34,353 nucleotides of DNA from an uncultured Calditrichaceae bacterium (GTDB taxonomy: Bacteria > Calditrichota > Calditrichia > Calditrichales > Calditrichaceae). Location: positions 1-34,353 of the forward strand of contig CAZJNP010000001.1 of the NCBI GenBank assembly GCA_964547355.1, read 5' to 3'. Numbering within the stretch: position 1 is the stretch's first letter; every line of letters starts with the position of its first letter. The position numbers and the translations under genes are program-made. Positions 3,112-19,431 of the stretch are shown here, one piece after another. The notes under the pieces were generated by a model. It saw nothing but the letters and a program-made list of their open reading frames with translations. It did no database searches and had not been told where the DNA came from.

Positions 3112-3663
3112 CTAAATCCACTCTTCAAGGATTTCCTTGCGCGGGGAGGGAATTACGATTTTTTCCACCAGCAACCCTTTTTTCTCAATGATCGCCGCGC
3201 CGGCGTCCACCGCGGCTTGTACGGCGCCCACTTCTCCGGTGAGCGTAACGTAACCTTTGCCGCCGATGGCCATGGCCAGGTGCACGTTAATCAGCTTGAT
3301 TTCGGCCGCCTTCACGGCTGCGTCGGCCGCTTCGATGACCGAGGCTACGGAAAATCCTTCAATAATGCCCAGGGCTTCGATCTTCGGCATGCGCGCCACG
3401 CCGTTGATCGCCGGGAAGACTTCGGGATGAACGTTCGGAATCACAAAATGATCCACCACCGTATGAGCGCCCACGGCCACGCCGGTTTCGATACTGGCGT
3501 TCACCGCGTCCACATCGCCGCCAATAAGTACCATATATTTGCCCGGACAAATCGTCCGGTTGACCACGATCTGCACGTCCGCTCGCTTTAATACGGCGTC
3601 GGCAACTTCGTACCCTTTGGCAATACTCGATGTTTCCACAATACCAATGGCTGCGCCTTTCAT
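3112..3663 (-). CDS. pduT: BMC-T shell protein (tandem BMC domains), PduT-like with the conserved pore cysteine (…VNRTICPGKYMVLIGGD…)
   Basis: At 183 aa it contains two BMC (Pfam00936-like) domains. It is collinear with Citrobacter/Salmonella PduT, including the 'TICPGK' motif whose Cys ligates the [4Fe-4S] cluster in PduT. The RBS 'AGAGGATGA' lies upstream of the start. Confidence 0.85.
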   Translation of the reverse strand: MKGAAIGIVETSSIAKGYEVADAVLKRADVQIVVNRTICPGKYMVLIGGDVDAVNASIETGVAVGAHTVVDHFVIPNVHPEVFPAINGVARMPKIEALGIIEGFSVASVIEAADAAVKAAEIKLINVHLAMAIGGKGYVTLTGEVGAVQAAVDAGAAIIEKKGLLVEKIVIPSPRKEILEEWI

Positions 3664-3675
3664 TCGTTCATCCTC

Positions 3676-5016
3676 TTATTTGGAAATGATATGGATTCCT
3701 CTGGCTTCAATTTGCGTTACCTCTCCGCTGATGCTGGCATGCGCCGGCGCACCCAGCGCCTCTTCCGGTACGGCGCCCACTAATGCACCGGCTTCTACCC
3801 GCTGCCCCACCTGAACTACCGGACTGGCCGGTTGCCCGATATGGGAATCCAGCGGAATAATGACCTCGCCGGGATTCAGACCGGCCGGTATGAATTCAGC
3901 GTGGCGGTCGTAAGGTTTCAGGCCCAGGCGGCGGTAAACCGTATCGATCGGAATTTCCCGTCCCTTGCGCGCCGGATGCACGTCGCGAAACAGGACCTCC
4001 AGTTCTTCCGGCATGCGCGAAAGTCCCTTTTCCCGGAGCAGTTGTTTGGCGTCCACGCAGATATTTTTGGGGTCCAGCCCTTCCGGACAGGCAATCATGG
4101 TGCACACATTGCATTCGCAGCAGTATTCCGCCCACAGGCTGACCCGCTCTTTGGCTTCGCCGGTCATGAGCAGATTGCGCATCACCTTGTGTGGCTCGAT
4201 GGGATAGCCCAGGATATAGCGCGGACACATTTCCGTACACAACGAGCACTGGTCGCACTGGCCGTGCCCAATGCGCTGGTACGTTTCTTTGGGCGTGGTT
4301 TTTCGGCGCACCAGATAGTGGTCGGCCGGGAGCGCAATGAGTCCGCCCACATTTTTTGCCAGCGGCAGATTCAGATCGAATTCCACGCCGCCCATCATCA
4401 CGCCGCCGGTTAGAATGGCGGCCTGTTCCACCGTGAATCCGCCTGCCAATGCGATGCAATCCCCGAAAGTGGTTCCCACCGGCACTTTGGTGGTCAGGGC
4501 ATTTTTTACCGCGCCGGTAATGGTGACGTATTTTTCCAGCACCGGCCGCTGCTCGTCCACGGCGTGGGCAATATTGATGATGGTTTCCACGTTGTCCACC
4601 ACCGCCCCTACCTGTAAGGGGATGCCTCCGGGCGGAATGCGTCGGCCGGTGATCTCGTAAACCAGGATGTATTCGTCGCCGGCAGGATACACGTCTTCAT
4701 AAATGAGGAAATCGAATCCCAGCCGCTCCGCCTGCGGCTTAAGCACCTCCACAATATCCCGGTTTTTTTCTTTTAAGGCGATGGTAACCTTTGTTGCTCC
4801 GGTGAGCTCCTGCATGATGGTCAGACCGCGTAAAAAGGCTTCCGCTTCTTCAAGCATCACAGAACGGTCCTTGTACAGCAACGGCTCGCACTCGGCGCCG
4901 TTGGCGATCACGTGTTCCACCTGAGCGTCCAGCTTTTTGTAAGTGGGGAAACCGGCTCCTCCGGCTCCGATCACGCCGGCTTCTCTGATGCGGTGCAGTA
5001 TTTCCTGTTTATTCAT
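3676..5016 (-). CDS. pduS: PduS-like / RnfC-family Fe-S flavoprotein (NADH-binding, two 4Fe-4S motifs)
   Basis: The N-terminus 'MNKQEILHRIREAGVIGAGGAGFPT' matches the PduS/RnfC NADH-binding start. Two Cys clusters are present: 'CDQCSLCTEMCP' and 'CCECNVCTMIACP'. The track ORF starts at TTG 5022, but I prefer the ATG at 5016, which lies 2 nt after the EutJ stop. The gene ends 12 nt before the BMC-T start. Confidence 0.8.
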   Translation of the reverse strand: MNKQEILHRIREAGVIGAGGAGFPTYKKLDAQVEHVIANGAECEPLLYKDRSVMLEEAEAFLRGLTIMQELTGATKVTIALKEKNRDIVEVLKPQAERLGFDFLIYEDVYPAGDEYILVYEITGRRIPPGGIPLQVGAVVDNVETIINIAHAVDEQRPVLEKYVTITGAVKNALTTKVPVGTTFGDCIALAGGFTVEQAAILTGGVMMGGVEFDLNLPLAKNVGGLIALPADHYLVRRKTTPKETYQRIGHGQCDQCSLCTEMCPRYILGYPIEPHKVMRNLLMTGEAKERVSLWAEYCCECNVCTMIACPEGLDPKNICVDAKQLLREKGLSRMPEELEVLFRDVHPARKGREIPIDTVYRRLGLKPYDRHAEFIPAGLNPGEVIIPLDSHIGQPASPVVQVGQRVEAGALVGAVPEEALGAPAHASISGEVTQIEARGIHIISK

Positions 5017-5018
5017 AG

Positions 5019-5840
5019 TCAACTTTCCGAAAATCCGTAAGCCGCAATGGCCAGCGGCGTTAAGTATAACGGGTTCGAAGGCAGAATAATTTCGTACCCC
5101 GGTAATTCCTGTTCAAACACCCGGTCGATGCCGGGAAAACAAAAAGTCCCTCCGGAAAGATAAACAGAGTGCACGTTTTGTCCCTGCAGGTGCTGCCGGA
5201 TAATTTCCGCCATCTTCTGAAAAACCGGCATGACCACAGGGGCGAATTGTTCTGCCTGTGGGCTGCGTTTTAATTCTTCCGCTTCTTCGAGAGAAATTTT
5301 TTGATTTCCCGCCAAGGTCAGGCTCACGTGCCTGCCGCCGGTCGGTTCATCCGCCGAATAAATGATGTTGCCGTTTCTGCTGATTGCAATCCCGGTGGTA
5401 CCGCCGCCGATATCCACCACCGCCCCGTCGTCGATCTTTAACAAATGCACAACGCTGGACGGTTCGTCAATAATCGCTTTTATAGAAAGTCCGGCCGCCC
5501 GCAGGACATTCTGAACGATTTCCCGGTCCGTACCGGGCGGGTAAGAGGTCACTGCTTCTTCGATTTTAATATTGAATTTCTCTTCGGCCAGGGAAACCAG
5601 TTTTTTAACAATCTGAACCGCGCCCCAGTAATTGAGCACCACGCCATCCCGTACCACTTCGGCCCATTCCATAAACGCCGCAGCGGGTTCTCCACGTTCA
5701 TCCACCAGCAGAATCACCACATCGGCGGTGCCAAGGTCTATACCTACCTGCCAGCGCGCCGGCGCTTCCGTCGGGGAGACGTCGTTGACAATGGATGCAA
5801 TCTTTTGCAGCCGCCGGTTAATCGTTTGCAATGCATTCAT
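5019..5840 (-). CDS. eutJ: EutJ-like actin/Hsp70-fold ATPase (BMC-associated chaperone-like protein)
   Basis: It has the 'VGIDLGTADVVILLVDE' phosphate-1 motif and a 'DIGGGTTGIAI' motif typical of EutJ. I trimmed the track ORF (5019..5990) to the ATG at 5840 (MNALQTINRRL…). That start sits 8 nt downstream of the aldehyde dehydrogenase stop and has an AGGATGA RBS. The longer N-terminus in the track overlaps the aldehyde dehydrogenase gene. Confidence 0.8.
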   Translation of the reverse strand: MNALQTINRRLQKIASIVNDVSPTEAPARWQVGIDLGTADVVILLVDERGEPAAAFMEWAEVVRDGVVLNYWGAVQIVKKLVSLAEEKFNIKIEEAVTSYPPGTDREIVQNVLRAAGLSIKAIIDEPSSVVHLLKIDDGAVVDIGGGTTGIAISRNGNIIYSADEPTGGRHVSLTLAGNQKISLEEAEELKRSPQAEQFAPVVMPVFQKMAEIIRQHLQGQNVHSVYLSGGTFCFPGIDRVFEQELPGYEIILPSNPLYLTPLAIAAYGFSES

Positions 5841-5848
5841 CCTGAGCG

Positions 5849-7267
5849 TTAAACAATCCTGAAATGATCCACGATGACGCATCTGCGCAAGCGGACGAAA
5901 CTTTTGGCCGAAGTGACACCTTCGCCCGTGGGCGTGGTAATGGTCATGGAGGTCCAGCCCTCGCCGCCGAAGCCCAGTCCAGCCAGGCACGGACCGTTCT
6001 TGACAAAAATGCTGGTATTAATCTCGTTGGCCATGCGGTGCATATGATCGATGTTCCTTGAGTGCATGGCCGCGGAATGGTGTAGTCCGCGCTCCAGCTC
6101 GATGGCCGTGTCGATCGCGGCGTCGGCGTCGGGCATGCGAATCAACGGCACGACCGGCATCATCAGCTCAATGCGGGCAAAGGGGTGATTTTTATCTGTT
6201 TCCACGAACAACAGGCGCGTTTCCGGTGGCACATTTACCCCGATGGCAGCGGCCAATTTGGCGGCGTCCCTGCCGACCCATTTCCGGTTGATGACCGCAT
6301 CCGGTCCTGGATAGCCTTCCAGAATCACGCGAGCCAGCTCGTCGGCCTGAGCGGATGTTAATTCCACCGCTTTGTTTTTCTGCATCTCCTGCTTTAGCTG
6401 GTCTGCGATCTGATCGACGGCAATAATTTCTTTCTCGTCGGCGCACACGATGTTATTGTCGAAAGAGGCGCCCCAGACGATCGATTTGGCGGCTTTGGCG
6501 ATATCCGCGGTTTCGTCCACTACTACCGGAGGATTGCCGGCTCCGGCGGCCATCAGCCGTTTGTTGGTGTGTTTTCTGGCCGCCTCCACCACCGATTCTC
6601 CACCGGTAACCACCAGAAGATCGATACCCGGATATTTGAACAACTGTTGCGCGTTTTCTATGGAAGGTTCGGCCACGGTCGTTAAAAGATATTGGGGTCC
6701 GCCCACGGAAACGATGGCCTGATTGACCACTTCGATGGCGCGATGCGTGACTTTTTTTGCGGCCGGATGCGGCCCGAAGACCACGGCGTTGCCTGCCGCA
6801 ATCATGCTAATGGCGTTGTTGATGACCGTAGCCGCCGGATTGGTGGACGGCGTAATGGAAGCAATCACGCCCCAGGCCGCGTTCTCGATAATGGTTAACC
6901 CATGGTCGCCGGAGAGGGCGTCCGGTTTCAGATCTTCCAGTCCGGGTGTATGTTCGGCCTGAGAGATATTTTTTTGGATCTTGTCCTCCACGCGGCCCAT
7001 ACCGGTCTCCTGAACCGCCAGTTCCGCCAGTTCGCGGGCGTATTGAACCCCGGCCTGACGCATCGCCTGAATAATCTTTCCGCGAAATTCCAGATTGCGG
7101 ATTTTCTTCTGGGCTTCTTTAGCCACCTGCACCGCTTCGTCCAGCGTTTCGTAAACTCCGGCCGGGTACTTCTTTGCAGTCGAACGAACGGTGGTCGGTT
7201 GTGCCTGGTTCAGGCGGGCCATTACCGAATCGACGATTTGGGAAATCTCCCTGTCCGATAAAGCCAT
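5849..7267 (-). CDS. eutE: CoA-acylating aldehyde dehydrogenase (EutE/PduP-like) with an N-terminal amphipathic encapsulation peptide
   Basis: This is an aldehyde dehydrogenase superfamily fold with a catalytic Cys region ('…FDNNIVCADEKE…'). I chose the start at the ATG at 7267 (MALSDREISQIVDSVMARL…) because it has an AAGGAAA RBS. The track's upstream extension (MLHFIAAFF…) lacks one. The first ~18 residues form an amphipathic helix followed by a Pro/Thr-rich linker, as in PduP/EutE encapsulation peptides. Confidence 0.85.
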   Translation of the reverse strand: MALSDREISQIVDSVMARLNQAQPTTVRSTAKKYPAGVYETLDEAVQVAKEAQKKIRNLEFRGKIIQAMRQAGVQYARELAELAVQETGMGRVEDKIQKNISQAEHTPGLEDLKPDALSGDHGLTIIENAAWGVIASITPSTNPAATVINNAISMIAAGNAVVFGPHPAAKKVTHRAIEVVNQAIVSVGGPQYLLTTVAEPSIENAQQLFKYPGIDLLVVTGGESVVEAARKHTNKRLMAAGAGNPPVVVDETADIAKAAKSIVWGASFDNNIVCADEKEIIAVDQIADQLKQEMQKNKAVELTSAQADELARVILEGYPGPDAVINRKWVGRDAAKLAAAIGVNVPPETRLLFVETDKNHPFARIELMMPVVPLIRMPDADAAIDTAIELERGLHHSAAMHSRNIDHMHRMANEINTSIFVKNGPCLAGLGFGGEGWTSMTITTPTGEGVTSAKSFVRLRRCVIVDHFRIV

Positions 7268-7409
7268 GGTGTTTCCTTTATTTCGATTTGAATATTTTAA
7301 CAAAAAGAAAGCTGCAATAAAATGCAGCAAAAGTAAATGTTACGTTGCCGGTTACAGACATATTTTTATAGCATCCGGCAGCGAAGACGAACGGTGGAAC
7401 AGAAGAACG

Positions 7410-7700
7410 CTATTCCAGCGTTCCTTTTAATTTAATCGGAAACACTTCTTCCAGATCGCCGTGCGGACGCGGGATCACGTGCACGGAAACCAGCTCGCCT
7501 ACCCGTTCGGCAGCCGCAGCACCGGCGTCGGTGGCCGCTTTACAGGCCGCCACATCGCCACGTACCAGCGCGGTGACGTATCCGCCGCCAATCTGTTCGT
7601 AAGCCACCAGTTTTACACGCGCGGCTTTGACCATGGCGTCCGCGGCTTCTATCAGGCCTACGAGGCCCTTGGTTTCGATCATTCCCAAAGCTTCCATCAT
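7410..7700 (-). CDS. BMC-H hexameric shell protein (PduA/EutM-like), copy 1
   Basis: The sequence '[29 protein letters not shown]…[19 protein letters not shown]' is the canonical BMC-H (Pfam00936) fold. A GAGGAG RBS precedes the ATGATG start. Confidence 0.9.
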
Positions 7701-7821
7701 GGAATACTCCTCTGTTGCGACCGGATTTTTTGTCCGGTCTCTCTATGGCTGTTACATTGAATTATCTGCTGCGAACAGCCGGTTTAACCTAAAGGAAATG
7801 CGGCAGATTCCCGGCTTGCGG

Positions 7822-8109
7822 CTATTCAATCTTTCCTTTTAATTTTATGGGAAACACGTCTTCCAGATCACCATGCGGACGCGGAATCACATGCACGGAC
7901 ACCAGCTCGCCGACCCGTTCGGCAGCCGCAGCGCCGGCGTCGGTTGCCGCTTTACAGGCAGCTACATCGCCGCGTACCAGCGCGGTGACGTATCCGCCGC
8001 CGATTTGTTCATAAGCCACCAGCTTTACTTTGGCCGCTTTGACCATGGCGTCCGCCGCTTCAATCAATCCTACCAGCCCCTTGGTTTCAATCATACCTAA
8101 TGCTTCCAT
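7822..8109 (-). CDS. BMC-H hexameric shell protein (PduA/EutM-like), copy 2
   Basis: It differs from copy 1 at about 4 of 95 aa. An AAAGGAG RBS precedes the start. Confidence 0.9.
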
Positions 8110-8198
8110 AAAGCGCTCCTTTATTAGGTTTGTGAATTTTCAATTACCTTTGTTTTTCAATCCCTGAAGGCCGGATCGTCCGGCATAACAGTTTTAAG

Positions 8199-9212
8199 TT
8201 ACGAATGACTTAAATTTAACTGGTTCTTCTCTAATAAACAACAAGCAAGAATCGTTGTTTTAATAAAACTTTCCGCGCTGCCGGTGGCAGGCAGGCCGTG
8301 TACCGGTTTCCTGAAACCGGTGTAAAAGGGCCCGTAAAGATGCCATCCGGCCAAATCGCGTGCGATCTTATACCCGATGTTGGCCGCGTTCAGCGAGGGA
8401 AAAATGAGCACATTGGCTTGACCCTGCAATTTACTACCGGGCGCTTTTTTGGCGGCCACTTCCGGCACGATGGCCGCGTCGAACTGCAATTCTCCCTCAA
8501 TGGTCATGCCGGTTTTTTGCCCCTGCGCCTGTTGCACGGCTTTCGTTACCTGATCCACCAGCTCGTGCCGGGCGCTGCCCATGGTAGAAAACGAAAGCAA
8601 CGCCACCCGCGGCTCTTCTTCGGTCATTTGCGCGTAAGCCCGCCCCGTGTTCACCGCAATGGACGCCAATTGCTGCGCCGTTGGCCGGGGCAGCACGCAG
8701 CAATCCGCGAAAGCCAGCGCCCGTTGGTTGTCCGGGCTAACCAGTAGATAAAATCCTGATACCGTATTTTCGGCCTCATCCACACCCACCATCTGGAGAA
8801 CCGCTTGCAACGCATCTTTAATGGGCGATTGGTTTCCGGTCATCACAAGGTCGGCCAATCCCCTGGCCACAAAACCGCTGCCGTACCAGAGCGGGTCGTT
8901 TAGCAGTGATTCTGCCTGGTAACGGGTCAGCCCTTTGGCTTTACGGCGGTCAAAGAAAGCGCGTACCAAATGGTCAAATTCCGGATCGTGCCGGGGTTGA
9001 CGAATCTTGATCCCGGTCAGAGAAATGCGAAAACGTGCGGCGAAATCCCGGATGGCGGACTTGGCGCCAATCAAAATCGGGTCTGCCAGGTTTTCATCCT
9101 TCAGATAACGAACCGTTTGCAGTACGCGTTCGTCCAGAGCGTCGGTAAAAACAATGCGGCGCGGTCGTTTACGGCAGCCTTCACGGCACCGATTTATGAT
9201 CTTTTCAAACAT
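8199..9212 (-). CDS. eutD: Phosphate acetyltransferase, EutD/Pta-type
   Basis: It is strongly collinear with E. coli EutD. Our N-terminus MFEKIINRCRE…RRIVFTDALDERVL matches EutD MIIERCRE…ARVVFPDALDQRVL. 'GFADCCVLPRPTAQQLASIA…EEPRVALLSFSTMGSARH' matches EutD '[20 protein letters not shown]…EEPRVAMLSFSSNGSARH'. 'GELQFDAAIVPEVAAKKAP…ANVLIFPSLNAANIGYKIA' matches 'GELQFDAAFVPEVAAQKAP…ANVMVFPSLEAGNIGYKIA'. The 337 aa compares with 338 for EutD. Confidence 0.9.
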   Translation of the reverse strand: MFEKIINRCREGCRKRPRRIVFTDALDERVLQTVRYLKDENLADPILIGAKSAIRDFAARFRISLTGIKIRQPRHDPEFDHLVRAFFDRRKAKGLTRYQAESLLNDPLWYGSGFVARGLADLVMTGNQSPIKDALQAVLQMVGVDEAENTVSGFYLLVSPDNQRALAFADCCVLPRPTAQQLASIAVNTGRAYAQMTEEEPRVALLSFSTMGSARHELVDQVTKAVQQAQGQKTGMTIEGELQFDAAIVPEVAAKKAPGSKLQGQANVLIFPSLNAANIGYKIARDLAGWHLYGPFYTGFRKPVHGLPATGSAESFIKTTILACCLLEKNQLNLSHS

Positions 9213-9217
9213 CGCGG

Positions 9218-9526
9218 TTACTTTTTGAATCTTTGCAGCACGTCGATGACCACTTCCCGGATCAGGTTCGGATCGCGCTGGTCGGCCGGCAAACGCTCCA
9301 CGACACGCTCAATCACCTGGCGCACAGTGGTTTCGTCGATATCGTTAAATTGAGCGTTTTGGGCCGCGTCCGGCTGTTTTTGCTCTTCCAGCAGCGCAAT
9401 CCCCAGGTCTTTGGCTAGTGAACGGGCTTCGGGCGTTACGATGTATTGGTTTTTAAACGCCTCGATTTCCTTAATGCCGTCTGTGTGCGCCTGCCGTACC
9501 ATGCGGGCGGTGATTAATTTCTTCAT
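9218..9526 (-). CDS. Small protein (102 aa) of unknown family with a basic N-terminus. It is translationally coupled downstream of ParA and is a candidate ParA partner or adaptor.
   Basis: Its ATG overlaps the ParA stop (ATGA), and its own stop lies 5 nt before the eutD start. The N-terminus 'MKKLITARMVRQ' is Lys/Arg-rich, and the protein is predicted helical. I did not recognise the family. Confidence 0.55.
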   Translation of the reverse strand: MKKLITARMVRQAHTDGIKEIEAFKNQYIVTPEARSLAKDLGIALLEEQKQPDAAQNAQFNDIDETTVRQVIERVVERLPADQRDPNLIREVVIDVLQRFKK

Positions 9527-10308
9527 TTTTCTGCCGGGCCTCCGGTAAGTCGCATGCGGTTTAATATTTCTTCGGCCAGGGCCATATACTCTTTAGCGCC
9601 ACGGGCTGAAGGAGCGTAATCGATAACCGGTTTCCGGACGTGAAACGCTTCGACCAGCTTGCTGTTTACGCCGATCACCGTCTGAAATATTTGTCTGGGA
9701 AACCGTTGTTGGATCAGAGTGTACACGTCTTTGGCCACGCGCGTGCGGCGGTCGTATTGCGTGCCGAAGACGCCCAGAATCCTTAACCTGGGATTCAGAT
9801 GGCGCCTGGTTTTTTCGATGACGTTTAACGTTACGTCCAGTCCGCTGAGACCGAGATACTGGGTTTGGATGGGGATCAGAACGTAATCGGCAATGGCCAG
9901 CGCATTTAAAGCCAGGCTGCCCATGTTGGGCGGACTATCAAACAGGACGATTTCAAAGCGATCCGGGAAATCTTCCCGGTGCAGAAAAAAATCCTGCTCT
10001 TCTTCCAGGGCTATTTCTTCCAGAAATTCGCTCAGCGCCGGCTCGGAGGGTAAACAGTGCAGGAATCCGTTGCCGACCGGGTAAATATAATCGGAAATTT
10101 TGCGCTGGGGTTGGATTAAAAAATCGCAAATGGTTTGGTAATCCTTCTCCTGCTTGTCAAAGCCGAAGTGCAGCGAGGCGCTGGCCGAGGGGTCCAGGTC
10201 TACCAGCAGACAGCGTTGATTCATTTTGGCGAAGCAGGCCGCTAAATTGACCGCGCTGGTGGTTTTCCCGATGCCGCCTTTGTTGTTGACGATGGCTACG
10301 AATTTCAT
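9523..10308 (-). CDS. ParA/MinD/Soj-family P-loop ATPase (deviant Walker A 'KGGIGKTT')
   Basis: The N-terminus 'MKFVAIVNNKGGIGKTTSAVNLAACFA' carries the classic ParA deviant Walker A with the signature Lys. The ~261 aa length fits the family. The start overlaps the EutK-like stop (ATGA). Confidence 0.85.
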   Translation of the reverse strand: MKFVAIVNNKGGIGKTTSAVNLAACFAKMNQRCLLVDLDPSASASLHFGFDKQEKDYQTICDFLIQPQRKISDYIYPVGNGFLHCLPSEPALSEFLEEIALEEEQDFFLHREDFPDRFEIVLFDSPPNMGSLALNALAIADYVLIPIQTQYLGLSGLDVTLNVIEKTRRHLNPRLRILGVFGTQYDRRTRVAKDVYTLIQQRFPRQIFQTVIGVNSKLVEAFHVRKPVIDYAPSARGAKEYMALAEEILNRMRLTGGPAEK

Positions 10309-10859
10309 TTCCGCCTCTTGGGTTTAATGGCGAAATAACGCTGCCGGATTTTTTCCACCGCACTGGCGTCCATGAGTTGTTTCAGGATCAAACGCAGCTG
10401 AGCCGCTTCCAGTTTAAAGCGGGCGGCCATTTCCTGAAGGGAGGCGCCCTGCGGCGATTGCTTTAAATGATCCAGAATGAGTTGGTCGGGAGGTTGAGAA
10501 GGGGACGCGGGCTTTTTGGCCCCTTTTCTTCGTTTGGACGCGGGTTTGGTGGCAGACGGTGCGGGCGGTTTGCGTTTGGGAGCGCCGATCCATTCTTCCA
10601 CCAGATGTTGCGTGTCGTCGAACGGATTGGCGATTACGTGAGCGGCCACCAGTTCACCGACGCGGTCGGCCGCCACGCTGCCGGCATTAACCGCGGCCTG
10701 ACAGGCACCCAGTTCGCCCCGAACCACAATCATTACCAGCGCGCCGCCCACCCGGCGCCATTTGATCAGTTCCACTTTGGCTGCTTTGACCATGGCATCG
10801 GCCGCTTCGATCGCTCCCACATAGCCGCGCGTTTCTATAAAACCGTAGGATAGCTTCAT
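10305..10859 (-). CDS. eutK: EutK-like shell protein: N-terminal BMC-H domain, a basic Pro/Lys/Ala/Ser-rich disordered linker, and a C-terminal helix-turn-helix (EutK_C-like) domain
   Basis: The BMC domain reads '[27 protein letters not shown]…VMIVVRGELGACQAAVNAG'. The linker reads 'APKRKPPAPSATKPASKRRKGAKKPASPSQPP'. The C-terminal ~60 aa (LILDHLKQSPQGASLQEMAARFKLEAAQLRLILKQLMDASAVEKI) looks like a winged-helix domain, as in the E. coli EutK C-terminal domain. The start is either M at 10877 or M at 10859. Confidence 0.75.
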   Translation of the reverse strand: MKLSYGFIETRGYVGAIEAADAMVKAAKVELIKWRRVGGALVMIVVRGELGACQAAVNAGSVAADRVGELVAAHVIANPFDDTQHLVEEWIGAPKRKPPAPSATKPASKRRKGAKKPASPSQPPDQLILDHLKQSPQGASLQEMAARFKLEAAQLRLILKQLMDASAVEKIRQRYFAIKPKRRK

Positions 10860-10953
10860 AATTAATAAATTAAACAAATAATCGCTTTACAAGCAAGCAA
10901 GAATCAAACTTGGGCCAAATAAATCTAAAGCTGCTCCCGTGCGGGAAACCCGG

Positions 10954-12882: not shown

Positions 12883-14238
12883 ATGGTGGCTGCGTTAATG
12901 GTATCTATATCGGGCATTCGGGGAGTGATCGGTGAGTCTCTGACGCCGGCTGTGGTGGACAAATACATTTCGGCCTTCGCCAAATATCTGAACGGCGGCA
13001 AAGTGGTGCTGGGCAGAGATTCCCGTGTTTCCGGGCCTTTTTTGTCCGATCTTGTGCGGGGTGTTCTGGTGGCTTCCGGTTGTCAGGTAATCGACATCGG
13101 AATTGTGCCCACGCCCACGGTTCAGTTAGAGGTGGAACATCATCAGGCGGCCGGTGGCATTGCCATTACGGCCAGCCATAACCCCATTCAGTGGAATGGT
13201 TTAAAATTTATGGGCAGCGACGGCCGCTTTTTGAGTCCCGCGGAAGCGGAAAAGGTGTTTGCCATGGCCGACTATGGCGAAACGGATTTCAAAGCCTGGG
13301 ATCGACTGGGTACGATCGCGCTGGATGACGGCGCCATTCGACGTCATATTGAGCGGGTTAAAAAAATCTCTTACATTGATGTGGAGGCGTTGCGTAAACG
13401 TCGCTTCAAGGTGGCGGTGGATACGGTGAACGGTGCCGGCGGTGTCATCATACCGCAACTACTGGAAGAGTTAGGCTGCGAAGTGATTACCCTGAATCAG
13501 GAACCGAACGGACGGTTTGCCCACACACCGGAACCTCTGCCGGAGAACCTGACCCAGCTGTGCGAGAAAGTAAAAGAAACCGGCGCCGACGTGGGATTTG
13601 CGGTGGATCCTGATGTGGATCGCTGCGCAATCGTGGATAACAATGGCCGGCCTATCGGCGAAGAGTACACGCTGGTGATCGCCACCAAACTGGTGTTCAG
13701 TAAAAAAATGGGACGCATGGTGGTTAACATGTCCACGTCGCGGGCGTCGGAAGATATAGTGAAATACTACAACGGCATGTTCATGCGCAGCAAGGTGGGC
13801 GAAATAAACGTAGCCGAAAAGATGAAGGAAATCGACGCCATCTTAGGCGGCGAGGGCAACGGAGGGGTCATCCTGCCGGAAGTACATCTGGGAAGGGACG
13901 CGCCGGTGGCTGTGGCGTTAACATTGCAGCAGTTGCTGGAATTCGGCGGAACCATGGCCGAACTGCACGCTTCTCTGCCGCAATATGTGATGATTAAGCA
14001 AAAAGTGAATATCGAGGGCATGGACCCGGATCGGGTGCTGCAAGTCATGGCCGAAAAATACAAAGACCGGCCGATCGATTTGCTGGACGGGGTGAAGATC
14101 GATTTTGAGAACAGCTGGGTGCACATGCGCAAGTCCAACACGGAACCGATTGTGCGCGTGATTAGCGAAGCGCCCACGGAGGAAGAAGCGCTGTCATTAG
14201 GTAAACGTTTTATGGACGAAATAAAGGCGTTAATGTAA
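12883..14238 (+). CDS. Phosphohexomutase-superfamily mutase (PGM/PMM/GlmM-like). From its neighbours it probably acts as a phosphopentomutase (deoxyribose-1-P to deoxyribose-5-P).
   Basis: It has the active-site 'TASHNP' phosphoserine motif and an N-terminal 'SISGIRGV' Mg/phosphate loop. The 451 aa fits GlmM and the archaeal-type PPM. AAGGAGG lies 6 nt upstream of the ATG. The function is assigned from context (the deoC and deoA neighbours), not from sequence. Confidence 0.75.
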   Translation: MVAALMVSISGIRGVIGESLTPAVVDKYISAFAKYLNGGKVVLGRDSRVSGPFLSDLVRGVLVASGCQVIDIGIVPTPTVQLEVEHHQAAGGIAITASHNPIQWNGLKFMGSDGRFLSPAEAEKVFAMADYGETDFKAWDRLGTIALDDGAIRRHIERVKKISYIDVEALRKRRFKVAVDTVNGAGGVIIPQLLEELGCEVITLNQEPNGRFAHTPEPLPENLTQLCEKVKETGADVGFAVDPDVDRCAIVDNNGRPIGEEYTLVIATKLVFSKKMGRMVVNMSTSRASEDIVKYYNGMFMRSKVGEINVAEKMKEIDAILGGEGNGGVILPEVHLGRDAPVAVALTLQQLLEFGGTMAELHASLPQYVMIKQKVNIEGMDPDRVLQVMAEKYKDRPIDLLDGVKIDFENSWVHMRKSNTEPIVRVISEAPTEEEALSLGKRFMDEIKALM

Positions 14239-14239
14239 C

Positions 14240-14524
14240 ATGCAGATTTGCCGGGTGATCGGGGATATTGTGTCCACGGTTAAAAACGAACATTTTAAGG
14301 GAAAGAAAATTCTGATTGTTCAGCCGCTGGACCTGGAGGATCAACCGCAGGGCAAAGCATTTTTAGCTTTGGATACGGTACAGGCCGGACCGGGCGACCG
14401 CGTTCTGGTGATGCGGGAAGGCGGTTCGGCGCGCATTATTTTTGAGGATAACGATATCCCGGTGCAGGCGGTCATTACCGCCGTGGTGGACGATATTCGC
14501 TTAGACGCGGACGCGCTTGATTAA
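14240..14524 (+). CDS. eutN: BMC-P pentameric vertex protein (EutN/PduN/CcmL family)
   Basis: The 94-aa protein matches the EutN pattern at 'ICRVIGDIVST' and 'QAGPGDRVLVMREGGSAR' (compare EutN 'GAGPGEWVLVSRGSAAR'). Its ATG begins 1 nt after the mutase stop. Confidence 0.85.
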   Translation: MQICRVIGDIVSTVKNEHFKGKKILIVQPLDLEDQPQGKAFLALDTVQAGPGDRVLVMREGGSARIIFEDNDIPVQAVITAVVDDIRLDADALD

Positions 14525-14607
14525 CAAATCTCCGCACATTAGCGAGGCAAAACACTTGTGAGGAGAAAAAAGAAATGCGAAAACCTGTTTAAAATAGAGG
14601 ATTATTT

Positions 14608-15432
14608 ATGTCTTCCATTACCAGCGATGTGATTGAACGGATTATTTCCCAGGTCATTTCCGAGAAACATATTGCACCGCGACCATTCACGTACGACGCG
14701 GCCAACGAATTGATTTCTTTCGGCGCCAATCGGGTCGGTGCTGTGGGTCCCACTTGTCCGCCCAAATACGAACTGGCACGCTGGATTGACCATACACTGC
14801 TCAAACCGGACGCTACACAAAAAGACGTGGAAAAAATCTGCTACGAAGCCCGTGATTACCATTTCGCTTCTGTGTGTATCAATCCTACCTGGGTGCCTTT
14901 GGCACATAAAATTTTACGCGGCAGCGAGTCCCGTGTGTGCACCGTGATCGGCTTTCCACTGGGCGCCACATTCCCGGAAGTCAAAGCCCGTGAAGCGCAA
15001 CTGGCCGTTGAAAACGGCGCTGACGAGCTGGATATGGTCATTAACATCGGTGCGCTCAAGTCCGGCGATTATGATCTGGTGGAACGGGATATTCGCGCGG
15101 TGGTACGCGCTGCGGGCCGGCGTATCGTTAAAGTGATTATTGAAACCTGTTTATTAACCGACGAAGAAAAAGTTAAAGCCTGCGCCATTGCCAAGCATGC
15201 CGGAGCCAATTTCGTCAAAACGTCCACCGGTTTCAGCAAGGGCGGTGCCACGGTGAAAGATGTGGCTTTGATGCGCAAGGTCGTAGGCGAATCCATGGGT
15301 GTAAAAGCCAGCGGCGGCGTACGCTCCTACGAGGAAGCCTGTAAAATGGTGGAAGCCGGTGCCACCCGCATTGGCGCCAGCGCCAGCGTGGCTATTGTGG
15401 GTAACGGGAACGGTAAGGACGCGGATTACTAA
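14608..15432 (+). CDS. deoC: Deoxyribose-phosphate aldolase (DERA/DeoC) with a ~50-aa N-terminal extension carrying a putative encapsulation peptide
   Basis: The core is class I aldolase TIM: '…[18 protein letters not shown]…' and '[21 protein letters not shown]…VKASGGVRS', including the Schiff-base Lys in 'FVKTSTGF'. The extension '[20 protein letters not shown]' is an amphipathic helix that is absent from free DeoC (E. coli DeoC starts near the equivalent of 'LKPDAT'). Confidence 0.9.
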
Positions 15433-15664: not shown

Positions 15665-16981
15665 ATGACCCCTTACGAGATAATCAGTAAAAAACGCGAT
15701 GGCTTTGAATTAAGCGATGAAGAAATTGAATTCATGGTTCTGGGTTTTGCCCGCGGCGAAATTCCGGATTATCAAATGTCGGCTTTGCTGATGGCTGTTT
15801 TTTTGCGGGGCATGAGTCAGCATGAAACCATGGCCTTAACCAAAACCATGCTTAATTCCGGGCGGGTGGTGGACCTGAGCCATATTCCGGGCGTAAAGGT
15901 GGATAAGCACAGCACCGGCGGTGTGGGAGACAAAGTGTCCATTATTTTAGCGCCCATTGTCGTTGCGGCCGGCGTTCTGGTGCCCATGATTTCCGGACGC
16001 GGTCTGGGGCATACCGGCGGTACGCTGGATAAGCTGGAAAGCATTCCCGGCTTTCGGGTCAATTATTCTATCCAGGAATATGCCGAAAAAATCGCAAAAA
16101 TCGGCACCTGCCTGATCGGGCAAACGCCGGATATTGTGCCGGCCGACAAAAAAATGTATGCCCTGCGGGACGTCACCGCCACCATTCAATCCATTCCGCT
16201 GATTACTGGCAGCATAATGAGCAAGAAACTGGCTGAAGGGATCGACGCCCTGGTGCTGGATGTGAAGACCGGGAAAGGCGCTTTTATGCAAAAGTATGAG
16301 GATTCCGTGGCTCTTGCCAAACAGTTGATCGCCACGGGCGAGCGGTTCGGCAAGCCCACGGTGGCTTACATCACGGACATGAACGAACCGCTAGGCAGGG
16401 CCGTGGGCAACTGGAATGAGATCGAAGAATGCATTTACGCATTGCAGGGAGACGGCCCTGAAGATTTAATGGAAGTAACGCACACGTTGTGCGGTGCCAT
16501 GATTTATCTCGGCAAAAAGGCGGGTTCTATCGATGAGGGCAAGGAAATCTCCAGAGAGATGATCCGTTCCGGAAAAGCATGGGACAAATTCCTGGAGATT
16601 GTGTCCGAACAGGAAGGCGATGTTGAAATGGTGAAGAATCCGCAAAAATATCCCAAATCAAAATTCAGCGTTCAGGTTACGGCGGAACAGGACGGCTATA
16701 TTGCCGGGATCGACGCCCTGGAGGTGGGGCTGACCGCGGTTATTTTGGGAGCGGGCCGCACGAAGTCGGATGACGAAATCGATCCCAAGGCCGGCATCAT
16801 GGTGCACAAAAAAGGCGGGGATCGAGTAGCAAAAGGCGAAACGCTTATGACCGTTTACACGGACAAGGAAAATGTTCTGACGGAAGCGCAAAAACGGTTG
16901 GGCCAGGCGGTTACTTATGCCAAACAATCAGTAGCACCGCGGCAGTTGATTTATGAGTACCTGGATAAGAACAGCTTGTAA
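15665..16981 (+). CDS. deoA: Thymidine / pyrimidine-nucleoside phosphorylase
   Basis: The 438-aa protein carries 'KHSTGGVGDKVSIILAPIVAAAGV' and 'SGRGLGHTGGTLDKLESIPGF', hallmarks of thymidine phosphorylase family 3. GAGAAGGAATGG provides the RBS. Confidence 0.9.
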   Translation: MTPYEIISKKRDGFELSDEEIEFMVLGFARGEIPDYQMSALLMAVFLRGMSQHETMALTKTMLNSGRVVDLSHIPGVKVDKHSTGGVGDKVSIILAPIVVAAGVLVPMISGRGLGHTGGTLDKLESIPGFRVNYSIQEYAEKIAKIGTCLIGQTPDIVPADKKMYALRDVTATIQSIPLITGSIMSKKLAEGIDALVLDVKTGKGAFMQKYEDSVALAKQLIATGERFGKPTVAYITDMNEPLGRAVGNWNEIEECIYALQGDGPEDLMEVTHTLCGAMIYLGKKAGSIDEGKEISREMIRSGKAWDKFLEIVSEQEGDVEMVKNPQKYPKSKFSVQVTAEQDGYIAGIDALEVGLTAVILGAGRTKSDDEIDPKAGIMVHKKGGDRVAKGETLMTVYTDKENVLTEAQKRLGQAVTYAKQSVAPRQLIYEYLDKNSL

Positions 16982-18321: not shown

Positions 18322-19431
18322 TTAGTGTTCAATAAAAACAAGTTTTGCAATTCCAATACTCAGGCCTAATTGTTGGTCACCCAGGTAGTGGGTAGCCTTA
18401 ACGGTCAGTTGAAATTGTTTGCCCAGTGGATAGCCTGCTTCCACACCCAGTAACAGGGGCTTGGATTTGCTTTTCCAACCACCCACCCAAAGCCAGGCAT
18501 CGGGATATTGAATATAATATTTCGCTCCCCAGGAATATGGTATTAAAAAATCATGCCACATGGCCGCTGTCAGGTAGAATTCTTTCATCAGGCCCAGGCG
18601 CAGATTAGCAAAAGGCAGCACCCACAATTCGGGTGCTCCACTGCAATAAAGGTCACCTAAGCGAAAATAGGTTAAACCGACGTTAATTCCCACATAGTGC
18701 CATACAAATTGACCGCCGGCCTGCAGAAAATAGGGAACGGAGATATGGTGATAAGCGGGCAGCGGTCCGAGCTCGTCTACCGACCAGTCGCATTCGCAAC
18801 AGCCGGTACCGGATTCCACATGGCGGGCAATACCGCCGCTGAACAATAGTCCGTGCTCTTCTTTTTGCGGTCGAAGCGAAAACCAGAGACCCTGGAAAAT
18901 ATCGCGGTCATCACCGGATTCGCTGTAAAAAAAGGTTCCGGAAAAGCTAACCCGATACGGAGTCTTCTTTTTCCGGAAAGGCTGATCCGCCCAGATACCG
19001 CGTTTGAATTTTTGCGCTTCGCTTTGCGCAGCTTCGGCTGCCGTTTTGTATTTTGTACCGGCATTGTCCACAAAGCGGCCGTAACCGCTTTTTAAAAACT
19101 CAATGTTCAGATTTCTTTTTTCCAGCGGATATTTCACCAGAAAATACACCAGCGGATAACCAGACTCGCTCCTGAAACCCGTGAATACTACTTCCACATT
19201 GCCGTTTCTTTCCAATCGCAAACGAATATATTTACGGATCGCCTTAGCCTGGGCCTGTTTGGCCGAGTCCGGATCTGACAACGATGGCGCGGCAATATTA
19301 CCCATCTGAACCTTTTGCCCATCGGAAAGAAGGAACAGGTTGGCGTCCAGCACTTCTTTAACCCACACATCGCCGCTCACGGCAAAACGAAACAATAATG
19401 CAATGATAAAGATGGTGCGCATCATAATCAT
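18322..19431 (-). CDS. Secreted protein: signal peptide, then a staphylococcal-nuclease-like (SNase/OB-fold) domain lacking catalytic residues, then a C-terminal beta-rich (possibly outer-membrane) domain
   Basis: It has an N-terminal signal peptide (MIMMRTIFIIALLFRFAVSG). 'VKEVLDANLFLLSDGQKVQMGNIAAPS' aligns to the SNase 'V.RV.DGDT..V..G..V.VRL.GIDAPE' motif, but DGD is replaced by DAN and the APE glutamate by Ser. The C-terminal region has alternating aromatic/hydrophobic residues. Confidence 0.55.
   Translation of the reverse strand: MIMMRTIFIIALLFRFAVSGDVWVKEVLDANLFLLSDGQKVQMGNIAAPSLSDPDSAKQAQAKAIRKYIRLRLERNGNVEVVFTGFRSESGYPLVYFLVKYPLEKRNLNIEFLKSGYGRFVDNAGTKYKTAAEAAQSEAQKFKRGIWADQPFRKKKTPYRVSFSGTFFYSESGDDRDIFQGLWFSLRPQKEEHGLLFSGGIARHVESGTGCCECDWSVDELGPLPAYHHISVPYFLQAGGQFVWHYVGINVGLTYFRLGDLYCSGAPELWVLPFANLRLGLMKEFYLTAAMWHDFLIPYSWGAKYYIQYPDAWLWVGGWKSKSKPLLLGVEAGYPLGKQFQLTVKATHYLGDQQLGLSIGIAKLVFIEH

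Follow-up and report, generated by a model that had tools for sequence, protein, structure and literature searches.

A deoxyribose-phosphate aldolase (DERA, the product of deoC) with an N-terminal extension is encoded beside bacterial microcompartment (BMC) genes in a 34,353 nt stretch of contig CAZJNP010000001.1 from an uncultured Calditrichaceae bacterium; this whole stretch is referred to as the window. The first ∼20 residues of DeoC are interpreted as an encapsulation peptide that recruits DERA, together with an EutE-type CoA-acylating aldehyde dehydrogenase (AldDH), into the lumen of an EUT-type compartment without EutBC, and a probability of about 0.7 was assigned to this interpretation. 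The extension was found to be conserved, specific to BMC-linked DERAs and predicted to be helical, and it matched the encapsulation-peptide pattern. By homology, the extension would target DERA to the compartment, and the docking step would take place on a 102-residue homologue of the EutQ N-terminal domain (EutQ-N) encoded in the same window.

No start codon lies between an in-frame TAA (14590-14592) and the ATG at 14608, 18 nt further on, which is preceded at 6 nt by the Shine-Dalgarno sequence AGAGGA. Solved DERA structures and TIGR00126 could be aligned to DeoC from residue 55 only, in agreement with the ∼50 extra N-terminal residues reported in the initial annotation, and 59 residues precede the IDHTLL motif compared with 6-9 in most stand-alone DeoCs. 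None of the DERA structures returned by a Foldseek search of the Protein Data Bank spans the extension. More than 100 Calditrichota orthologues start alike, with the consensus MSSITxxxIExIISQVIxE, and I12, I13 and V16 were at least 90% conserved in an alignment of 59 sequences. Comparison of codons 1-21 with four orthologous genes gave ratios of non-synonymous to synonymous differences (pN/pS) of 0.24-0.34 with pS of 0.6-0.94, which is nearly saturated. On this sequence evidence the extension is shown to be translated and under purifying selection. D142, K175 and K204 were invariant in the 59 sequences, with the motifs DELDMV, VKVIIE and FVKTSTG, and from established knowledge of these motifs we take the three residues to be the equivalents of E. 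coli D102, K167 and K201.

Some database models omit the extension, as would be expected if the start were mis-assigned and the extension untranslated. This explanation is effectively refuted by the Shine-Dalgarno sequence, the upstream stop, the N-terminus common to the orthologues and the strong amino-acid conservation and purifying selection in the face of saturated synonymous change. The RefSeq Caldithrix DERA models (P0104-P0106) are 229 amino acids long and begin at an internal GTG (MGPTCPPK), with loss of the extension; a GenBank Caldithrix model of 278 amino acids retains it. The 229-residue models are examples of the truncation described by Dwyer, Sutter and Kerfeld (2024; PMC11585597), in whose survey the extension of SPU DERAs was often missed by annotation. 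The same models could be taken to mark a short cytosolic isoform, initiated near codon 46 and made from deoC in addition to a long encapsulated one, and in-frame GTG or TTG codons are present at residues 8, 35 and 46. Production of two isoforms is nevertheless quite improbable: GTG-46 has no Shine-Dalgarno-like sequence before it, short models were ascribed to automated mis-annotation by Dwyer et al. (PMC11585597), and the codons upstream are under purifying selection.

An AlphaFold2 model of DeoC built on the 59-sequence alignment (mean predicted local distance difference test score, pLDDT, 85.6) contained helices at residues 6-20 and 29-37, a loop at 38-52 and the barrel from residue 53. In the first helix the hydrophobic pairs V8-I9, I12-I13 and V16-I17 alternate with polar pairs, and its hydrophobic moment was at the 97.5th percentile of 14-mers in the window proteins. 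The earlier description of the first ∼20 residues as an amphipathic helix was therefore borne out by both the predicted structure and a moment in the top 2.5%. The underlying pattern of hydrophobic (h) and polar (p) residues, h-pp-hh-pp-hh, was found seven times in 10,094 residues of window protein, with 2.6 occurrences expected from shuffled sequences. AldDH and DeoC each have one of the seven at the N-terminus, starting at residue 8 or 9, and another is located in the EutQ-N protein. What is common to the two peptides is this canonical encapsulation-peptide pattern of alternating hydrophobic and polar pairs from residue 8 or 9. Within the cluster, DERA and AldDH are the only enzymes that bear an extra N-terminal helix; the EutJ-like protein is likewise without an N-terminal extension.

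The AldDH start was placed at ATG 7267-7265, which follows AAGGA, on the basis of this Shine-Dalgarno sequence and of homologue lengths, as the start is common to 120 homologues of 465-480 amino acids. The mechanically called open reading frame (ORF; 5849-7330, minus strand) begins at TTG 7330 and thereby includes 21 codons ahead of the conserved ATG. The position given for the AldDH peptide in the initial annotation (7214-7267) was three bases off, as the residues ALSD...RL are encoded by 7264-7211. Alignment of the two N-terminal profiles with hhalign paired residue n of DeoC with residue n-1 of AldDH (P = 0.007, homology probability 2%), such that I9, I12-I13 and V16-I17 of DeoC were matched to I8, I11-V12 and V15-M16 of AldDH. 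This register is one helical turn from that of the initial annotation.

Positions within both peptides correspond to contacts described for the Salmonella Eut system (PMC12487888). There, helices H1/H2 of EutQ bind the shell and H3/H4 bind residues 1-20 of EutC and of EutE with a dissociation constant of ∼7 μM, the contacts include I6, V10, V13 and M14 of EutC with L89 and V93 of EutQ, and deletion of the EutC or EutE peptide abolishes encapsulation of the enzyme that carries it (PMC12487888). When aligned on E. coli EutC and EutE, the four EutC positions were occupied by identical residues in AldDH (I8, V12, V15, M16) and by identical or conservative residues in DeoC (I9, I13, V16, I17), so that the I-x-x-x-V-x-x-V-M positions are matched in both window peptides. 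The AldDH peptide is in addition homologous to that of EutE. L89 and V93 of Salmonella EutQ correspond to V92 and V96 of the 102-residue protein.

The 102-residue protein gave no Pfam hit. It matched E. coli EutQ 1-99 with 30% identity (E = 1e-13), and its AlphaFold2 model had helices at 7-15 and 32-41 in an ordered N-domain and at 65-78 and 86-101 beyond a low-confidence linker (50-62), which is the four-helix H1-H4 layout reported for Salmonella EutQ 1-99. Two amphipathic helices resembling encapsulation peptides, VRQVIERVVERL and LIREVVIDVLQRF, are present at its C-terminus. A profile search of 1.84 billion representatives returned 147 relatives; nearly all of the best two dozen were ∼90-113 amino acids long, and proteins of EutQ length were found mainly lower in the list. 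As the EutQ N-terminal domain is a known receptor for the EutC and EutE encapsulation peptides, the EutQ-N protein is by analogy a likely docking partner for the DeoC and AldDH tags.

The distribution of the extension was determined from a scan of one genome per species, which yielded 80 deoC loci in which ORFs were read upstream from the IDHTLL motif. Extension-type genes, with 62-84 residues before IDHTLL or a larger N-terminal fusion, were found at 37 of the 80 loci, in Calditrichota, Ignavibacteria, Melioribacteraceae, Kryptonia, Bacteroidota, Anaerolineae, Auribacterota, Armatimonadota and others. The remaining 43 were short-type, stand-alone genes from Streptococcus, Bacillaceae and similar organisms. 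A G[AS]xR[IVL] motif no more than 45 residues upstream of IDHTLL was present at all 37 extension-type loci and at none of the 43 short-type loci. Shell genes were located within 10 kb of 8/37 extension-type and 0/42 short-type loci (Fisher P = 0.0015), an association that is significant but weak. The extension is thus present in BMC-linked DERAs and not in stand-alone DeoCs, which was the comparison proposed in the initial annotation. Among relatives of the window operon the order mutase-deoC-phosphorylase occurs with or without a BMC-P gene, the operons with an inserted BMC-P being those of the window, L001 and L004. A neighbour-joining tree of the catalytic domains did not settle whether the extension had a single origin.

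In Ignavibacteria, Melioribacteraceae, Kryptonia and Bacteroidota, extension-type DERAs were observed among housekeeping genes far from shell genes (loci including L019, L020, L026, L028, L031, L038, L053, L068 and L076), and the deoC of Melioribacter, flanked by folD and murA, is 9 kb away from a BMC-H fragment of two genes. Locus L061 (353-979), from the metagenome-assembled genome (MAG) of a horse-faeces organism, has a DERA frame that is open upstream without a stop and lacks the G-A-x-R motif. Its upstream sequence may resemble a PduL phosphotransacylase, in which case PduL and DERA may be fused there; an artefact of assembly or reading frame is the alternative.

Several observations weigh against an encapsulation role for the first DeoC helix. 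Its pLDDT was just 70-79, and its hydrophobic moment was exceeded by the N-termini of Pta, the EutJ-like protein and BMC-P, which lie within their folds, so amphipathicity alone is not discriminating. The best ungapped BLOSUM62 score between the DeoC and AldDH peptides was 23 (shuffle P = 0.07), and nine other window-protein segments scored at least 23 in a BLOSUM62 scan. When N-terminal profile hidden Markov models (HMMs) of DeoC (80 sequences) and AldDH (82 sequences) were run against the six-frame translation of the window, each matched only itself. The polar EutQ contacts E64, R67 and Q75 are not conserved in the EutQ-N protein. Most extension-type orthologues are encoded at a distance from shell genes, as in C. 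abyssi, the Ignavibacteria loci and L087, and encapsulation-peptide HMM searches of FRAG genomes were negative (Sutter et al., 2021; PMC8217296). Residues 29-52, which make up over half of the extension, are conserved and include an invariant Arg.

The shared ISQ motif on which the initial annotation had relied exists as a literal match (IISQVI in DeoC, EISQIV in AldDH), but S9 and Q10 vary among AldDH orthologues (IAQIV, INKIV and IARIV were seen) and the similarity is not above chance. The motif was rejected as evidence, and detectable homology between the two peptides was rejected on the HMM result. The chance-level pairwise similarity, the comparable hydrophobic moments elsewhere in the window proteins and the many orthologues encoded away from shell genes would also be expected if the resemblance were coincidental and the helix had a role unrelated to the BMC, such as anchoring to the membrane or nucleoid or aiding solubility. 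Coincidence appears very improbable given that the extension occurs only in lineages known for BMCs (FRAG1, FRAG3 and SPU taxa), that shell genes co-locate only with extension-type genes and that BMC-P has been inserted into the operon at the three loci named above. The proposal that the DERA extension is a tag for co-encapsulated cargo is supported by precedent and on comparative evidence, namely the BMC linkage, the selection on the extension, the match to the EutC contacts and the restriction of the tag to DERA and AldDH.

The second half of the extension is of a different character. The spacer at residues 21-28 varies in length and sequence, and G39, A40 and R42 were invariant in the 59-sequence alignment. 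The 'Pro-rich linkers' described in the initial annotation were overstated, as two of the 18 residues of the AldDH spacer are Pro and residues 21-52 of DeoC include the predicted helix 29-37 and the invariant G39, A40 and R42. In other phyla a Cys-rich spacer (CxxCxxC or C-x4-C-x4-C) was observed between the first helix and G-A-x-R, and CxxC was present in some Calditrichota spacers and absent from the window DeoC; a lost or optional metal site is suggested by these spacers.

Conservation of residues 29-52 with the invariant Arg points to a further or different role, for example as a partner or oligomer interface. The extension could on this basis be mainly an enzyme-enzyme interface for oligomerisation or partner binding (AldDH channelling, or an RPI-like partner), with DERA being encapsulated by piggy-backing. 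A conserved second helix and an invariant G39-A40-x-R42 are atypical of a peptide plus linker, SPU6 DERA forms complexes with the isomerase RPI and is driven to aggregate by its extension (PMC11585597), and encapsulation peptides can act by self-association (PMC12339742). However, the DERA-RPI complex formed without the extension (PMC11585597), no RPI is encoded in the window, and the first helix agrees with the EutC/EutE pattern at each position. An interface as the main function was considered unlikely; it also overlaps with the encapsulation-peptide reading, because condensation of cargo is part of how such peptides act.

The features on which the analysis was based are collected in Table 1.

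Table 1. Features of the window, with positions counted from its first nucleotide (strand: +, forward; -, reverse)
Feature	Position	Strand	Remarks
DeoC (DERA), 274 amino acids	14608..15432	+	Pfam DeoC; TIGR00126, 302 bits; TM-score 0.97 to solved DERAs
DeoC codons 1-21, encapsulation-peptide-like element	14608..14670	+	Predicted amphipathic helix, residues 6-20
Rest of DeoC extension, residues 22-54	14671..14769	+	Spacer 21-28, predicted helix 29-37, loop with G39-A40-x-R42 and CPPK
G39-A40-x-R42 motif of DeoC	14722-14733	+	Invariant in alignment
AldDH codons 1-19 (MALSDREISQIVDSVMARL), N-terminal encapsulation peptide	7211..7267	-	Homologous to EutE residues 1-17
CoA-acylating AldDH, 472 amino acids	5849..7267	-	63% identity to E. 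coli EutE, full length
Stand-alone EutQ N-terminal domain, 102 amino acids, no cupin domain	9218..9526	-	EutQ model NF012001 positions 1-99, E = 6e-14
BMC-P (EutN/CcmL) pentamer gene	14240..14524	+	Directly 5' of deoC, same operon
Two BMC-H genes	7410-7700 and 7822-8109	-	EutM-like
BMC-H with EutK-type C-terminal domain	10305..10859	-	Domain matches
BMC-T (tandem BMC domains, PduT-like)	3112..3663	-	Adjoins PduS/RnfC-like gene
PduS/RnfC-like flavoprotein gene	3676-5022	-	
PGM/PMM-family mutase, probable phosphopentomutase	12883..14238	+	First gene of operon; no N-terminal extension
Pyrimidine-nucleoside phosphorylase	15665..16981	+	3' of deoC; no N-terminal extension
Pta-type phosphotransacetylase (pfam01515)	8199..9212	-	EutD-like, 42% identity; no terminal extension
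ParA/MinD-type ATPase (Walker A KGGIGKT)	9523-10308	-	

DERA, CoA-acylating AldDH and shell proteins are all encoded in the window, and the closest homologues come from Calditrichota. The plus-strand operon of mutase, BMC-P, DERA and phosphorylase genes lies next to the main shell/AldDH operon and is transcribed away from it. The mutase scored above the cut-off of an archaeal-type GlmM model; it is probably a phosphopentomutase, because its operon with pyrimidine-nucleoside phosphorylase and DERA is conserved. Mutase, phosphorylase and DERA together probably form a deo-like pathway by which deoxynucleosides are converted to acetaldehyde. Some 1.3 kb beyond the 3' end of this operon, the minus strand (18322-19431) encodes a protein with a staphylococcal-nuclease-like domain, which would fit scavenging of extracellular DNA, although nothing ties it to the operon in function. 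Scanning of the window ORFs revealed no EutB or EutC domain, no RpiB-type isomerase (pfam02502) and no PduL. One EutN/CcmL gene, and no BMC-P triplet, was found within the 34 kb window; others are possible elsewhere in the genome.

On the minus strand a permease gene is followed by genes for BMC-H-EutK_C, the ParA-like ATPase, the EutQ-N protein, Pta, two BMC-H proteins, AldDH, the EutJ-like protein, the PduS/RnfC-like protein and BMC-T. In EUT terms the main operon (3112-10877, minus strand) reads EutK-like, ParA, EutQ(N), EutD, EutM twice, EutE, EutJ, PduS-like and BMC-T. Identities to the E. coli proteins were 87% for EutM (BMC-H 7410-7700), 48% for EutJ, 30% for EutQ and, for EutD and EutE, 42 and 63%. 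The 95% identity between the two EutM-like proteins points to a recent tandem duplication. Gene set and gene order recur in the complete EUT locus L086, from a MAG, where a ParA-like gene likewise follows the EutK-like gene and EutABC, EutS, EutP, EutT and full-length EutQ are present in addition. In comparison with L086 and the E. coli eut locus (L083), the main operon is without EutABC, EutS, EutP, EutT, EutG and the EutQ cupin domain. From the gene identities to E. coli and the L086 gene order, the main operon is an EUT core minus its lyase, and the signature enzyme appears to have been swapped on an EUT chassis. The proposed signature enzyme here is DERA, as opposed to EutBC in Salmonella Eut; shared with the Salmonella system is an operon in which a homologue of EutQ 1-99 is accompanied by EutM-, EutD-, EutE-, EutJ- and EutK-like genes. 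The window homologue differs from Salmonella EutQ in having no cupin (acetate kinase) domain and in its polar contacts.

The ParA/MinD-type gene overlaps the genes for the EutK-type BMC-H and the EutQ-N protein by a few bases, which suggests translational coupling, and the order BMC-H-EutK_C, ParA, EutQ-N is kept in the Calditrichota contig L084 and in L086. Members of the EutQ-N family end in RFKK, RYLK or SYMK, with an aromatic residue within the last four; such a C-terminal aromatic has been reported for McdB-like proteins encoded close to BMC operons of non-carboxysome type (PMC8359340). The ParA-like and EutQ-N proteins may form an McdAB-like positioning pair for the metabolosome.

Extensions of this kind have been described for SPU loci. 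All SPU DERAs were found to have an N-terminal extension that includes an amphipathic helix and is absent from non-BMC DERAs, deletion of the extension rendered SPU6 DERA soluble, and N-terminal peptides were predicted on most SPU AldDHs (Dwyer et al., 2024; PMC11585597). The window DeoC resembles SPU DERAs (PMC11585597) in having a helix first and a further element before the barrel, in keeping the catalytic Asp and two Lys, in an extension that is not found on non-BMC DERAs and is often cut by automated annotation, and in being accompanied by an AldDH with an N-terminal encapsulation peptide. Its extension is ∼50 residues long compared with ∼70 in SPU6 DERA, and its second element is predicted to be helical, in contrast to two beta-strands in SPU6; its lineage (Calditrichota FRAG3) apparently lay outside the SPU survey. 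At the level of the locus, SPU types have an RpiB-type isomerase with DERA, missing only in SPU5; the window differs in having neither RPI nor PduL, one BMC-P in view and an EUT-like main operon. A Pta/EutD-type phosphotransacetylase is present here, where the PduL type is reported for SPU loci. Of the prediction that this is an SPU-type luminal DERA, the cargo reading stands; the prediction is no longer new (PMC11585597), and the locus is FRAG3, EUT-derived and not one of SPU1-7.

For Calditrichaeota, Sutter et al. (2021; PMC8217296) catalogued FRAG3 loci with 'a DeoC/LacD aldolase next to a BMC-P', which they regarded as a clue to function. The window agrees with FRAG3 (PMC8217296) in its Calditrichota origin, in DeoC beside BMC-P and in a standard BMC-H together with a BMC-H bearing a C-terminal extension. 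It differs from the catalogued loci in that the DeoC operon is not dispersed and abuts the AldDH/Pta/PduS/shell operon; no encapsulation peptides were reported for FRAG genomes in the catalogue and function was left open. The same authors noted extensions resembling encapsulation peptides on remote pfam01791 genes in HO genomes and listed FRAG1 (Ignavibacteria, Kryptonia, Bacteroidetes) as 'shell protein only' (PMC8217296). As the taxa in which extension-type DERAs lie remote from shell genes are these FRAG1 'shell-protein-only' taxa, DERA may be their unrecognised cargo. Earlier, the AldDH/pta/PduS locus of C. abyssi was listed without a signature enzyme (Axen et al., 2014). In C. abyssi (L081/L082) the extension-bearing deoC was found paired with a mutase gene and more than 10 kb from any shell gene, and this remoteness explains why the locus was catalogued in that way. 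A more tentative proposal, possible but held with less than even confidence, is that FRAG3 as a whole is an EUT chassis in which EutBC has been swapped for a DERA that mimics the EutC/EutE tag on a cupin-less EutQ-N protein, and that DERAs with the G-A-x-R motif are the missing FRAG1 cargo.

Low identity between the peptides of one organelle is also a feature of the Pdu signal sequences (PduD, PduP, PduL, PduM and PduB; PMC12108088). Those sequences belong to another organelle with other receptors (PduB, PduM, core aggregation) and have no detectable homology to the window peptides.

In the proposed mechanism, a cytosolic nucleoside phosphorylase and the mutase would supply deoxyribose 5-phosphate, and DERA would replace ethanolamine ammonia-lyase as the source of acetaldehyde. 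The N-terminal amphipathic helices would draw DERA and the EutE-type dehydrogenase into the lumen, the hydrophobic faces of both peptides (the four EutC-equivalent residues of each) being placed on helices 3 and 4 of the EutQ-N protein, whose N-terminal half would be the tether to the EutM-like shell. Both production and consumption of acetaldehyde would then take place in the lumen. Since encapsulation peptides can bundle or self-associate (PMC12339742), the two peptides may in addition bundle with one another and condense the cargo.

An extension resembling an encapsulation peptide on microcompartment DERAs is already published, and its presence in this organism adds little when taken alone; the value lies in its context. 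What is added here is a contiguous locus, EUT ancestry and a candidate adaptor. The window physically joins a Caldithrix-type AldDH/Pta/PduS/shell operon, catalogued in 2014 without a signature enzyme and in 2021 as 'fragmented', to an operon of mutase, BMC-P, DERA and phosphorylase. With the tag located only on the aldehyde-producing and aldehyde-consuming enzymes, and with a stand-alone EutQ N-domain named as candidate receptor, it becomes testable whether a given shell can be loaded with different acetaldehyde-generating enzymes by way of a single adaptor and a single peptide pattern. The question bears on functional change during microcompartment evolution and on the engineering of cargo loading.

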